Assembly (NCBI RefSeq): GCF_030013595.1
Contig: NZ_CP122768.1
From: Escherichia coli
GTDB lineage: Bacteria; Pseudomonadota; Gammaproteobacteria; Enterobacterales; Enterobacteriaceae
Direction: 5' to 3' (one strand)
Length of the DNA stretch: 64,000 bases
Below are positions 46,392 through 53,478 of the stretch, piece by piece (the stretch's first letter is position 1; each line of letters opens with the position of its first letter). The notes under the pieces are model-generated. The model made no database searches. It was given only the letters and a program-made list of their open reading frames with translations, and was not told the DNA's origin. The position numbers and the translations under genes were made by a program.

Positions 46392-46677
46392 GGGGTTATG
46401 TCCGGTTCCCTGATATTAAATGGGGTGTGATGGTTTTTATTTTCGTTGTAATCACATAAGGCGCACATGATACCGGAGTTAATCATTTCAGGGGAAGAAG
46501 CGAACGGCGAGTTCTTGATGGTGATTCCGCGAAAGATGCTGTTTTGCAGCTTTTGCGTGATGCTTATGAAGCAGGTACGCAAAATTGCGTCGGTTGAATA
46601 AACCTCCTCCTTCAGAGCCATAGTCCCCTTTCAAATTAAGTTGTAATATAAATACACCTTAAGAGTATGGAGGCAGC

Positions 46678-47022
46678 ATGTCCGGCAAGCGTATCTCTCG
46701 TGAAAAACTGACGATTAAAAAAATGATCGATCTTTATCAAGCGAAATGCCCGCAGGCGTCAGCGGAGCCGGAGCATTACGACGCGCTGTTTGCCTACGCG
46801 CAAAAGCGGCTGGATAAATGTGTGTTCGGCGAAGAGAAACCAGCCTGTAAGCAGTGTCCGGTGCACTGTTACCAGCCTGCAAAGCGTGAAGAGATGAAAC
46901 AGATTATGCGTTGGGCCGGGCCGAGAATGCTGTGGCGTCATCCGATCTTAACCGTGCGTCATCTCATCGATGACAAGCGTCCGGTGCCGGAGTTGCCAGA
47001 AAAATATCGTCCAAAGAAATAA
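46678..47022 (+). CDS. ygbA: Nitrous oxide-stimulated promoter family protein
   Basis: 114-aa ORF with CPQ...CKQCPVHCY Cys motifs; position next to mutS. Confidence 0.8.
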   Translation: MSGKRISREKLTIKKMIDLYQAKCPQASAEPEHYDALFAYAQKRLDKCVFGEEKPACKQCPVHCYQPAKREEMKQIMRWAGPRMLWRHPILTVRHLIDDKRPVPELPEKYRPKK

Positions 47023-47026
47023 ATCT

Positions 47027-47049
47027 GCCGGAGAGCCATACTCTCCGGC
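47027..47049. terminator. Hairpin between convergent ygbA and mop gene
   Basis: gccggagag-ccata-ctctccggc. Confidence 0.5.
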
Positions 47050-47060
47050 AAATAAGGCGT

Positions 47061-47489
47061 TTACGCTTTGGTGGCAATCAGGATGGCTGATGCTTTGATC
47101 AATGCAATAACGCGCGAGCCAGTGGTGAGTTTCATTTCATCCTGACTTTCATTTGTTACCACTGCCACAATTTCAAAACCCGCATCCGTTTTGATATGGA
47201 CAGTGGCGTTCACTGCGCCTTCGGTGATTGTCGACACGCTGCCAGCAAACTGGTTGCGAGCAGAGAATTTCAGTCCACAGTCTTCCGTTGCCAGCGTGAC
47301 CCACGGGGCTTTAATCAGGGCAATCGCTTCTTTCCCTTTTGCCAGACCCAGAGCCTGCTGGCTGCTGTGAGTCACAATTGCCACCAGCTTTGCACCACCT
47401 GCCAGCGTCAGTTCTACTTCATCATTCACAGCGCCCATTGCTACTGCGCTAACTGTTCCGGTTAATTGATTTCTTGCTGAAACTGCCAT
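47061..47489 (-). CDS. Molybdenum-pterin/molybdate-binding protein with two tandem Mop (TOBE) domains
   Basis: 142-aa MAVSARNQLTGTVSAV...IALIKAPWVTLATE and SARNQFAGSVSTI...IALIKASAILIATK internal duplication; AAGGAGG SD upstream of complement ATG 47489. Confidence 0.7.
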   Translation of the reverse strand: MAVSARNQLTGTVSAVAMGAVNDEVELTLAGGAKLVAIVTHSSQQALGLAKGKEAIALIKAPWVTLATEDCGLKFSARNQFAGSVSTITEGAVNATVHIKTDAGFEIVAVVTNESQDEMKLTTGSRVIALIKASAILIATKA

Positions 47490-47533
47490 ACTGCCTCCTT
47501 TCATTGAATGTTGATCGAGTATAACCACATCTG

Positions 47534-49612
47534 TTAAATCAATGCCGATTTATCAATTCCCAGCCGCTTCATCCGTGACAGCAGGGTCGTGCGTTTCAGC
47601 CCCAGACGTTGCGCAGCGCCTTTAGGCCCGGCAACCACGCCGTTGGTTTCTTTCAGCACGCGCACAATCAACTGATATTCATCTTCGCCCTCCTGGGCGA
47701 CAACCGTTGCGGCAGGCGGCGTTTCAGGCTCCGGTAAAGCAATATCTGGCAATGACAGCTGCAGCACGTTGCCGCGTGTTAGCAATACTGCGCGCTCAAT
47801 GACGTTTTCCAGTTCGCGTACGTTACCCGGCCACTCCATGTTGCTCAAGGTGCGCAGCGTCTCGGCAGGAATGCTGTCGATATTGCGCCCCAGACGACGG
47901 GCAATTTTGAAGGTAAAGGCTTTCGCCAGCAGCGGAATATCTTCCGGACGCTCGCGTAGTGGCGGCAGGTGAATCGGGAATACGTTCAGGCGGTAATAGA
48001 GATCGCTACGGAACTCTCGGTCGGCGACCATTTTTTTCAGATCGCGGTTAGTTGCGGCAATTAAACGTACGTCCGTCTGAATGATTTTGTTGCTGCCGAG
48101 ACGTTCAAACTCCTGTTCCTGCAATACACGCAGCAACTTCGGCTGTAACTCCAGTGGCATATCGCCCACTTCGTCGAGGAACAGAGAGCTTTTATCCGCC
48201 AGTTCAAAACGACCAATGCGCTGGGCGCTGGCACCGGTAAAAGCCCCACGCTCATGACCAAACAGATCGCTCTCCAGCAATCCGGCAGGCATCGCCGCGC
48301 AGTTCATTTTGACCATGCGGCGATTATTACGCCCACTGAGATTATGGATAGCACGGGCAATCAGCTCTTTACCCGTGCCAGTTTCACCGAGGATCAGCAC
48401 GGTACTGTCACTTTGCGCCACCATTTCAACTTGTTTAAGCACGCTGTACATGGCTTCGCTGCGGCCAATAATCTCGCCAAATTCACTATCAACATTGTTG
48501 AGCTGCTCGGTCAGGGCGAGGTTTTCATCAACCAGCCGTTCTTTCAGACGATGGATTTCCTGATAGGCGAGGGCGTTATCGACAGCGATTGCCACACGTT
48601 CGGCAATCTGGCGCAGTAAATTCAGATTGGTAGTGGTAAAGACTTTCTCTTCGCATTGCGCCAGTTTCAGCACGCCCAGCATGGTGTCGCCAGACATCAG
48701 CGGTAACAGGCACAAGGTTTGAATCTGGTTGCCCCAGGTGTCGAACAACATGCGTTCATAGGGGGCTAAATCGTCCCGCTCGTGGAGATTAATCAACAGC
48801 ATCTCTTTACTTTTGAAGACGCGTTCGGTGAGGGTTCCGGCTTCATCGACTTCGCTCTGTTCGTGGGCGGGATGCTGTTTATCAAGATAGTGAGTGGAGT
48901 AGATGTTGAGTTTGTTTTTACGGTGGCTGCGTAAGACGATGCTGATATCGTCAATGTCGAAGTAGTAATGGATTTCTTTGGCGACTTCGCTGACCAGTTC
49001 GTCCATATCCAGGCGGGAAAGCACCGCGTTGGTAATGGCAACCAGGATGCGGAAGTTATCGCGTTCCCGGCATAACAACTCATAGTCGACATTGTTAACG
49101 ACGCGGCTCTGGATTTGTTCGGTGACGACAGAAACGATCTGCGTAAATGTTTGCAGACGATTGAACTCTTTTTCGCTCCAGGGGCGATCGTCATAACGAA
49201 TAAATTCACAGCCACCAAAAATATGCCCTTCCGCCGCCAGTGGCATCAGGCAATAGTGACCAAATTTGGGGTATAGCCCACCTGCGGCCAGCTGCGGCCA
49301 GGTTTCACAAAATTCTTCGTAACTGCAATGCAGCGTATCAGGGCGCGACAAAATGCTGCGTACCGGACCGTGTGCCAGAACAGTTTCGTCTTCATATTTA
49401 ATGGGGGTGTCTTTTTCACGCGACGCGTAATAAGACGCACGTTGAGTCTGCGCTTGCCACAACACAATAGCCGCGTTGTCGGCGAGCGCAGAACGCTTTA
49501 CCAGTAGCGAAAGAGCCTCACACAGCGAGGCCAGATCGGGCTGCTGCAATAGTGTCCGAGTGATGTCGAACAACCCTTGTTGTCCGAGATCACTCATCGG
49601 TGTATATGACAT
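47534..49612 (-). CDS. fhlA: Formate hydrogenlyase transcriptional activator (sigma54-dependent, GAF + AAA+ + HTH)
   Basis: 692-aa MSYTPMSDLGQQGLFDITRTLLQQPDLASL..., sigma54-interaction motifs GETGTGKE and GAFTGA. Confidence 0.96.
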   Translation of the reverse strand: MSYTPMSDLGQQGLFDITRTLLQQPDLASLCEALSLLVKRSALADNAAIVLWQAQTQRASYYASREKDTPIKYEDETVLAHGPVRSILSRPDTLHCSYEEFCETWPQLAAGGLYPKFGHYCLMPLAAEGHIFGGCEFIRYDDRPWSEKEFNRLQTFTQIVSVVTEQIQSRVVNNVDYELLCRERDNFRILVAITNAVLSRLDMDELVSEVAKEIHYYFDIDDISIVLRSHRKNKLNIYSTHYLDKQHPAHEQSEVDEAGTLTERVFKSKEMLLINLHERDDLAPYERMLFDTWGNQIQTLCLLPLMSGDTMLGVLKLAQCEEKVFTTTNLNLLRQIAERVAIAVDNALAYQEIHRLKERLVDENLALTEQLNNVDSEFGEIIGRSEAMYSVLKQVEMVAQSDSTVLILGETGTGKELIARAIHNLSGRNNRRMVKMNCAAMPAGLLESDLFGHERGAFTGASAQRIGRFELADKSSLFLDEVGDMPLELQPKLLRVLQEQEFERLGSNKIIQTDVRLIAATNRDLKKMVADREFRSDLYYRLNVFPIHLPPLRERPEDIPLLAKAFTFKIARRLGRNIDSIPAETLRTLSNMEWPGNVRELENVIERAVLLTRGNVLQLSLPDIALPEPETPPAATVVAQEGEDEYQLIVRVLKETNGVVAGPKGAAQRLGLKRTTLLSRMKRLGIDKSALI

Positions 49613-53333: not shown

Positions 53334-53349
53334 AGCAATAATTGTGCCA
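53334..53349 (-). promoter_or_regulatory. Candidate sigma54 promoter for hyp operon (TGGCAC-N5-TTGCT on minus strand)
   Basis: Reverse complement of 53334..53349 reads tggcacaattattgct, the -24/-12 consensus; about 30 nt upstream of hypA ATG. Confidence 0.5.
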
Positions 53350-53462: not shown

Positions 53463-53478
53463 TGGCACAGAAAATGCT
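53463..53478 (+). promoter_or_regulatory. Candidate sigma54 promoter for hyc operon (TGGCAC-N5-ATGCT)
   Basis: tggcacagaaaatgct with GG-N10-GC spacing, about 37 nt upstream of hycA ATG. Confidence 0.5.

Follow-up and report, generated by a model that had tools for sequence, protein, structure and literature searches.

Genomic setting of the gene

The interval between fhlA and ygbA in Escherichia coli raises the question of which protein is encoded by a short gene at this site, whether the gene was gained by the strains that carry it or lost by those that do not, and what it might contribute to cells that build formate hydrogenlyase (FHL). We addressed this question in a stretch of 64,000 nucleotides of E. 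coli DNA (contig NZ_CP122768.1), hereafter the window, in which the locus comprises the following features:

46678..47022, plus strand: ygbA, an NsrR-regulon gene of the YgbA_NO family (Pfam YgbA_NO, E 4e-41), which converges on mop; 114-aa allele, linked to mop presence
47013..47053, minus strand: intrinsic terminator (stem and U-rich tail between the convergent mop and ygbA), putative end of the hyp-fhlA-mop transcript
47061..47489, minus strand: coding sequence of a ModG-like di-Mop protein with two TOBE domains, here called mop, recognized from the translated reading frame and its domain matches
47490..47533, minus strand: fhlA-mop spacer of 44 nt, without a terminator and holding a -10-like TATACT
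47494..47501, minus strand: Shine-Dalgarno sequence of mop (AAAGGAGG), read off the sequence
47534..49612, minus strand: fhlA, the formate hydrogenlyase transcriptional activator gene, upstream of mop and ending 44 nt before its ATG; probable co-transcription partner

A first-pass annotation had described a tandem-Mop (TOBE) protein gene with a strong Shine-Dalgarno sequence and a flanking hairpin, situated between ygbA and fhlA and close to the hyp and hyc genes, and this description was borne out in each of its parts. The mop reading frame runs on the minus strand from an ATG at 47489-47487 to a TAA stop at 47063-47061, thus comprising 142 codons, and its product (142 aa, 14.5 kDa) corresponds to RefSeq WP_000301062.1 and to c3292 of strain CFT073. 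The Shine-Dalgarno sequence (47501-47494) is located 4 nt before the ATG, and a cross-genus comparison found GGAG(G) at the equivalent position in 19 genera and species. The hairpin starts 7 nt past the mop stop codon; its GC-rich stem of 14 bp (47053-47023) leads into a U-rich tail (47022-47013), and its free energy amounts to -25.4 kcal/mol, a z score of -4.6 against dinucleotide shuffles. In the wider region, mutS and pphB lie past ygbA, and hypE-hypA together with the divergent hyc operon lie past fhlA.

Two annotation details were also observed around these genes. The mutS-ygbA interval holds a 44-codon ORF (46467-46601, plus strand), designated "hypothetical protein" by PGAP (WP_165787351.1 in an identical strain), variants of which occur in K-12 and other strains. 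The PGAP/RefSeq symbol given to 47534-49612 reads "flhA/FlhA", a flagellar export name, and not fhlA/FhlA, a slip that is repeated across the sampled records.

Domain architecture, fold and ligand residues

The mop protein was matched twice by Pfam TOBE (PF03459, E 8.8e-35) and twice by the NCBIfam Mop model TIGR00638 (E 4.1e-42, well over the cut-off), these matches spanning residues 2-69 and 73-140 with no further domain in the protein, and an alignment of the two domains with one another gives 43% identity (E 3e-18), which confirms the duplication noted at first sight. By sequence, the closest solved structure was ModG (1H9J; E 5e-33, 48.6% identity over the full length), followed by the di-Mop part of E. 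coli ModE (E 1e-15, 36% identity) and then by the single-domain Mop/Tub proteins. An AlphaFold2 model of the monomer, built from a 22-sequence alignment, reached a mean pLDDT of 95.9 and a pTM of 0.87, and its Foldseek comparison with ModG 1H9J gave a TM score of 0.95 and an rmsd of 1.3 Å at 48% identity. The N-terminal MAVSARNQ corresponds to the Mop β1 strand from residue 1 onward and no extra N-terminal segment is seen in the model; with neither a signal peptide nor a membrane segment, the protein is predicted from sequence and model to be cytoplasmic.

The anion-ligand positions were transferred from the tungstate-bound structure of Tub, in which the ligands are the Ser4 and Lys60 side chains, the Arg6 and Ala61 backbones and Ser40 of the neighbouring domain, the threefold-axis site being formed by the Ala20-Val21-Asn22 backbone (PMC11980592); its authors note how closely this structure resembles those of ModG, Mop and ModE (PMC11980592). 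Domain 1 of the mop protein shares the residue numbering of Tub and presents S4, R6, A20-V21-N22, T40 and K60-A61 at these positions, position 40 being Thr as in ModG and ModE, and the equivalents in domain 2 are S76, R78, A92-V93-N94, T112 and K132-A133. Across 49 orthologs, the ligand positions of both domains are invariant or at least 90% conserved, and they align with those of ModG.

Comparison with characterized proteins of this family placed these features in context. Like the mop protein, A. vinelandii ModG (1H9J/1H9K/1H9M; Delarbre et al. 2001) consists of two tandem Mop domains (~14.5 kDa), and the SARN, GAVN, T and KA ligand motifs are found in both domains of each protein. According to the account of Mouncey et al. 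(1995, 1996) given in PMC11980592, expression of modG is ModE-dependent and ModG has a role in the synthesis of the nitrogenase FeMo-cofactor; mop, unlike A. vinelandii modG, is located behind hyp-fhlA in an organism that does not fix nitrogen, and the window yielded no ModE box. The single-domain molbindins (C. pasteurianum MopII, 1GUG; E. limosum Tub, 9BEB; H. influenzae Mop) share their fold with each half of the mop protein (TM 0.84-0.92 on the target, 30-40% identity) and have the same two kinds of binding site, but they are ~7-kDa single domains forming hexamers, whereas the mop protein carries two domains fused in one chain, so that a trimer would be expected.

The fold of the di-Mop part of E. 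coli ModE (1H9R/1H9S, 1O7L) is also alike, with TM scores of 0.89-0.90 at 36% identity. In its first Mop domain, residues S126/R128/T163/S166/K183 (ModE numbering), which we take to be the molybdate ligands, are the same as those of the mop protein; its second Mop domain, however, has lost the SARN and KA motifs (NADN and NA, respectively), which the mop protein keeps in both domains. ModE further bears an N-terminal winged-helix DNA-binding domain that is absent from the mop protein, which is therefore not a transcription factor. In line with this, the ModE model NF007957 matched over profile positions 124-261 of 263 only, with 88 bits against a cut-off of 369, and the ModC/WtpC models matched over their C-terminal ~65 positions only (47 versus 285 bits), the ATPase domain being absent. 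The earlier suggestion that the protein could sense molybdate found no support, as the mop protein has no output domain.

Other class assignments were considered and rejected, namely a ModE transcriptional regulator (the protein begins at the di-Mop part and has no winged helix), a ModC/ABC-transporter ATPase (absence of the ATPase domain) and a single-domain hexameric molbindin of the Mop/Tub type (two domains per chain).

Based on the two TOBE/Mop domains, the ModG fold, the ligand residues and the lack of both a ModE winged helix and a ModC ATPase, the mop product is very probably a ModG-type oxyanion-binding protein, that is, a molbindin. By analogy with its homologs, it would assemble as a ModG-like trimer mimicking the Mop hexamer and would bind molybdate or tungstate at two axial and six interfacial sites with nM-µM affinity. 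The type-1 sites, on the threefold axis, would be built from the backbone amides of the G-A-V-N loops, and the type-2 sites, at the domain interfaces, from the S-A-R-N motif, Thr40/Thr112 and the K-A pair.

Presence and absence in E. coli

The first-pass annotation knew of no such gene in K-12, rightly so: mop was not found in K-12 MG1655 nor in O157:H7, and its absence from K-12 makes it a variable gene in E. coli. A DNA search of 5,426 complete E. coli genomes detected mop in 1,889-1,892 of them (~35%), ~65% being devoid of the gene. Carriers always have one chromosomal copy at the fhlA-ygbA site, no second copy being found in any of the 5,426 genomes, and at least 80% of the query is retained in 1,889 of 1,892 carriers. 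The mop-positive lineages include B2 (e.g., CFT073) and IAI39, as known from the literature and from known strains.

Junction alignments defined the stretch that distinguishes the two states:

47050..47533, both strands: stretch swapped for 9 nt (AATTTGCAG) in K-12-type strains

In the K-12 alignment, these 484 nt between the hairpin and the fhlA stop codon are replaced by the 9 nt, and a hairpin homologous to the mop terminator directly follows fhlA, the same element that closes mop in the window; the K-12 stem differs by a compensatory G:C to C:G change. Among mop-negative E. coli, five strains were sampled (K-12, O157:H7, O152:H23, 03_3503 and Z503), and all five exhibited the identical deletion junction, with flanks 95.1-98.3% identical to the window, as well as a 117-aa ygbA allele linked to the deletion. 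As junction and ygbA allele are shared by all five gene-less strains, the data point to a single loss, in which one ~475-bp deletion allele removed exactly the mop cistron and left the terminator in place.

The two haplotypes also differ next to the junction. The ygbA product has 117 aa ending in KKPHE in mop-negative strains versus 114 aa ending in KK in mop-positive ones, and the sequences at 47011-47022 and 47013-47053 of the window (positions 1900-1950 of the extracted locus L001) are far more diverged between haplotypes than the flanking genes. Single genomes showed further changes in the region. In the mop-negative E. coli 03_3503, fhlA is annotated as a frameshifted pseudogene (L054, 569-835). 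In E. coli FDAARGOS_1285 (NZ_CP070152.1, 1488188-1493524; L058, 1788-2626), an IS1A is located between nlpD and a 3'-truncated mop pseudogene, and the stretch from rpoS to mutS-ygbA appears to be missing between nlpD and mop; if so, this strain would be without rpoS and mutS.

Orthologs in other Enterobacteriaceae and origin of the polymorphism

A scan of species outside E. coli, with one genome per species, returned 49 loci, in 39 of which mop was located at the end of the hyp cluster (36 arranged as hypE-fhlA-mop and three as hypE-mop). In most of the 36 hypE-fhlA-mop loci ygbA follows mop, either adjacent or a few kilobases off. Carriers of this arrangement include E. albertii (99% amino acid identity), a cryptic Escherichia clade (96%), six Citrobacter species (~93-95%), Raoultella/Klebsiella species (88-92%) and members of Kluyvera, Enterobacter, Pluralibacter, Yokenella, Lelliottia and Kosakonia (81-90%). 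Three loci, L035, L040 (Phytobacter) and L047 (Kosakonia sp. S29), display the order hypE-mop-ygbA at ~4858-6426 with fhlA absent between, which means that mop goes with the end of the hyp cluster and not necessarily with fhlA.

Inspection of gene contexts revealed mop orthologs that stand alone, without Mo-related neighbours, in Serratia, Cedecea and Edwardsiella. The Salmonella enterica ortholog (89% identity; L052, 6001-6429, and L053, 4025-4453) lies away from fhlA. Its neighbours are genes for BhsA-like, TetR, DUF417 and YedZ/YedY-like (Ni_hydr_CYTB and Oxidored_molyb) proteins, and in L053 a fragment of an IS21 IstB abuts it. The position of the gene in some Salmonella serovars suggests relocation or secondary acquisition. 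Given the stand-alone orthologs and the displaced Salmonella one, the link with FHL is not universal.

Pairwise dN/dS values of mop against E. albertii, Citrobacter, Klebsiella and Kosakonia ranged from 0.03 to 0.10. The GC content of the gene is 50.6%, versus 52.1% for the window, its GC3 is 47.6%, versus 57-61% in neighbouring genes, and no traces of mobile elements are present at the mop locus of the window. The most parsimonious reading of these sequences is that mop is ancestral to the Enterobacteriaceae at the fhlA-ygbA site, has been under strong purifying selection and was lost once in part of E. coli.

The opposite polarity, in which some E. coli gained mop only recently, as an accessory insertion into the fhlA-ygbA interval, is what the absence of the gene from K-12 and O157:H7 might suggest, and the fhlA-mutS interval is moreover a known island hotspot (PMC7232297), with the GC3 of mop lying somewhat below that of its neighbours. 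Nevertheless, the gene occupies the same site in E. albertii, in the cryptic Escherichia clade and in at least 30 other enterobacterial species, and it is found between fhlA and ygbA in E. fergusonii as well (Lerminiaux et al. 2020, PMC7232297); its overall GC content is ordinary, mobile-element traces are absent, and the one junction common to all sampled gene-less strains fits a single loss. We regard the recent insertion as highly improbable, and this reading as effectively refuted. The label "accessory" that had been attached to the gene hence holds as far as variability within E. coli is concerned (1,889 of 5,426 genomes) and fails as to its cause, as synteny and the shared junction indicate that the variation arose by loss and not by gain. 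It is extremely unlikely that the ORF is a decaying, non-functional remnant. In favor of such decay, 65% of complete E. coli genomes have lost the gene with no evident cost; this is countered by the low dN/dS, the retention of at least 80% of the query in 1,889 of 1,892 carriers, the invariant ligand motifs and the conservation of both the Shine-Dalgarno sequence and the terminator.

With ancestry and a single loss as the preferred reading, the textbook K-12 map fhlA-ygbA-mutS represents a derived, deleted state.

Transcription of mop

A sigma-70 scan of positions 46400-48200 returned no promoter, and neither a terminator nor a full sigma-70 promoter was located in the fhlA-mop spacer and the preceding 600 nt; it is on this ground that mop seems reasonably likely to be the last cistron of the hyp-fhlA unit, co-transcribed with fhlA. 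A -10-like TATACT was seen by eye just past the fhlA stop codon (47523-47518, minus strand), 28 nt 5' of the mop ATG, for which no -35 element was found at the proper spacing. A TATAnn recurs near the equivalent spot in Citrobacter, Pluralibacter, Kluyvera and Lelliottia and is loosely conserved across genera; a separate weak mop promoter is possible on account of this conservation.

The search for sigma-54 sites in the window returned a perfect site at 53334 and sites with one mismatch at 53463 and 53584, all of them in or beside the hyc/hyp divergent region, and none upstream of mop; a further one-mismatch site, at 47379, falls within mop but in antisense orientation and was taken as a chance match. 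The ModE-box pattern TATAT-N5-8-TAYAT, a crude one whose absence constitutes weak evidence, had no match anywhere in the window.

Proposed role in molybdate handling

The idea, put forward in the first-pass annotation, of a cytoplasmic molybdate binder beside the FHL regulator is reasonable. In our preferred reading, which we consider probable, mop encodes a cytoplasmic ModG-class molbindin that is made with hyp-fhlA and holds a molybdate pool for Mo-cofactor synthesis. Since mop trails the hyp-fhlA unit with its own Shine-Dalgarno sequence and is followed by the operon terminator, it would be produced under fermentative conditions, while the cell builds formate hydrogenlyase. The formate-oxidising half of this complex, FDH-H, is a molybdoenzyme, and the dependence of full fdhF/hyc expression on ModE and molybdate (Pinske et al. 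2011, PMC3149613, citing Hasona 1998) likewise favors the preferred reading. The mop protein would store cytoplasmic molybdate for the synthesis of the molybdenum cofactor of FDH-H, securing Mo for the burst of enzyme production, and it may damp swings in the free molybdate seen by ModE. A specific contribution of mop to FHL and Mo-cofactor supply, as deduced from homology and gene context, is put forward more tentatively, as a possibility short of an even chance. Most work on formate hydrogenlyase has been done in K-12, and mop is not required for FHL, given that K-12-type strains (~two thirds of complete E. coli genomes) do without the gene.

A different function under the same gene order would be that of a regulatory partner, in which the mop protein competes with ModE for molybdate, forms mixed oligomers with the ModE di-Mop part or contacts FhlA, implying a strain-specific, Mo-dependent induction of fdhF/hyc. 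The 36% identity and TM scores of 0.89-0.90 that relate the protein to the ModE di-Mop, along with its position directly after the FHL activator gene in ~36 species, are compatible with this function, and so is the statement in Pinske et al. (2011, PMC3149613), made there with reference to Hasona 1998, that maximal fdhF/hyc expression needs ModE-molybdate in addition to FhlA and formate. Yet the protein carries neither a DNA-binding domain nor an output domain of another kind, resembles ModE less than it does the storage protein ModG (48% identity), follows hypE without fhlA in three species and stands alone elsewhere, and we therefore deem a regulatory partnership improbable.

The bound anion could also be tungstate. 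Under this alternative, the mop protein would be a tungstate-directed binder ("TudG", Shao et al. 2025) that sequesters gut tungstate and keeps W out of the cofactor of FDH-H and the respiratory molybdoenzymes. Crystals of Tub, ModG and the ModE di-Mop bind tungstate at the molybdate sites (PDB 1H9R, 9BEB), and ModG/TudG architectures are frequent in gut species predicted to use W (Shao et al. 2025, PMC11980592). Against it, the Mop-family binders known so far bind molybdate and tungstate with comparable affinity. We know of no tungstoenzyme use in E. coli and its relatives, which likewise weighs against a dedicated tungstate function, and we give this alternative little credence. The preference of the mop protein for molybdate or tungstate cannot be read from its sequence, precisely because the known Mop-family binders bind both alike.

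Returning to the molybdate-holding molbindin, the distribution of the gene implies that about one third of complete E. coli genomes, as well as many other Enterobacteriaceae, carry a predicted stand-alone cytoplasmic molybdate/tungstate binder. To our knowledge, K-12 is without any such stand-alone binder. A broader proposition, which we advance as speculative and rather doubtful, is that mop constitutes a functional, strain-variable part of Mo/W homeostasis overlooked in K-12 work, being made with FhlA and setting the free molybdate available to ModE and the cofactor pathway. If this were true, mop-positive lineages (B2 and IAI39; E. albertii, Citrobacter and Klebsiella/Raoultella species) would be set apart from K-12/O157-type strains by their tungstate sensitivity and, when Mo is at nanomolar levels, by their FDH-H/FHL output; such a difference would bear on the use of tungstate to suppress Enterobacteriaceae in the inflamed gut.

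Prior record and nomenclature

The mop gene has been annotated before, and its presence/absence polymorphism has been published. In CFT073, c3292 is entered as a "putative molybdenum-pterin-binding protein", and a c3292-mutS PCR was designed by Ewers et al. (2014, PMC4209514). The same study reported fhlA-mutS amplicons of 1,673 bp for the CFT073 type (pattern III, B2) versus 1,208 bp for MG1655/EDL933, and positions 47050..47533 of the window account for this ~465-bp length difference in the fhlA-mutS interval (PMC4209514). A literature search on the annotation names and on c3292 found no functional study of the enterobacterial mop protein, and a two-TOBE "TudG/ModG" architecture is listed among the storage classes of gut microbes (Shao et al. 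2025, PMC11980592).

Several names are in circulation for the gene. PGAP calls the product "TOBE domain-containing protein" or "molybdopterin-binding protein", and Lerminiaux et al. (2020) mention the gene but call it "modE" (PMC7232297). This last name, together with "transporter" and the JGI designation "molybdate transport system regulatory protein", is a misnomer, and these misleading names are corrected by the present assignment.

A discrepancy was also observed in Table 1 of Ewers et al. (2014, PMC4209514), where strain E2348/69 is given a 1,208-bp fhlA-mutS amplicon and yet a c3292-mutS amplicon as well; an O127:H6 genome (NZ_LT903847.1) has mop, and the 1,208 value therefore looks like a table error.
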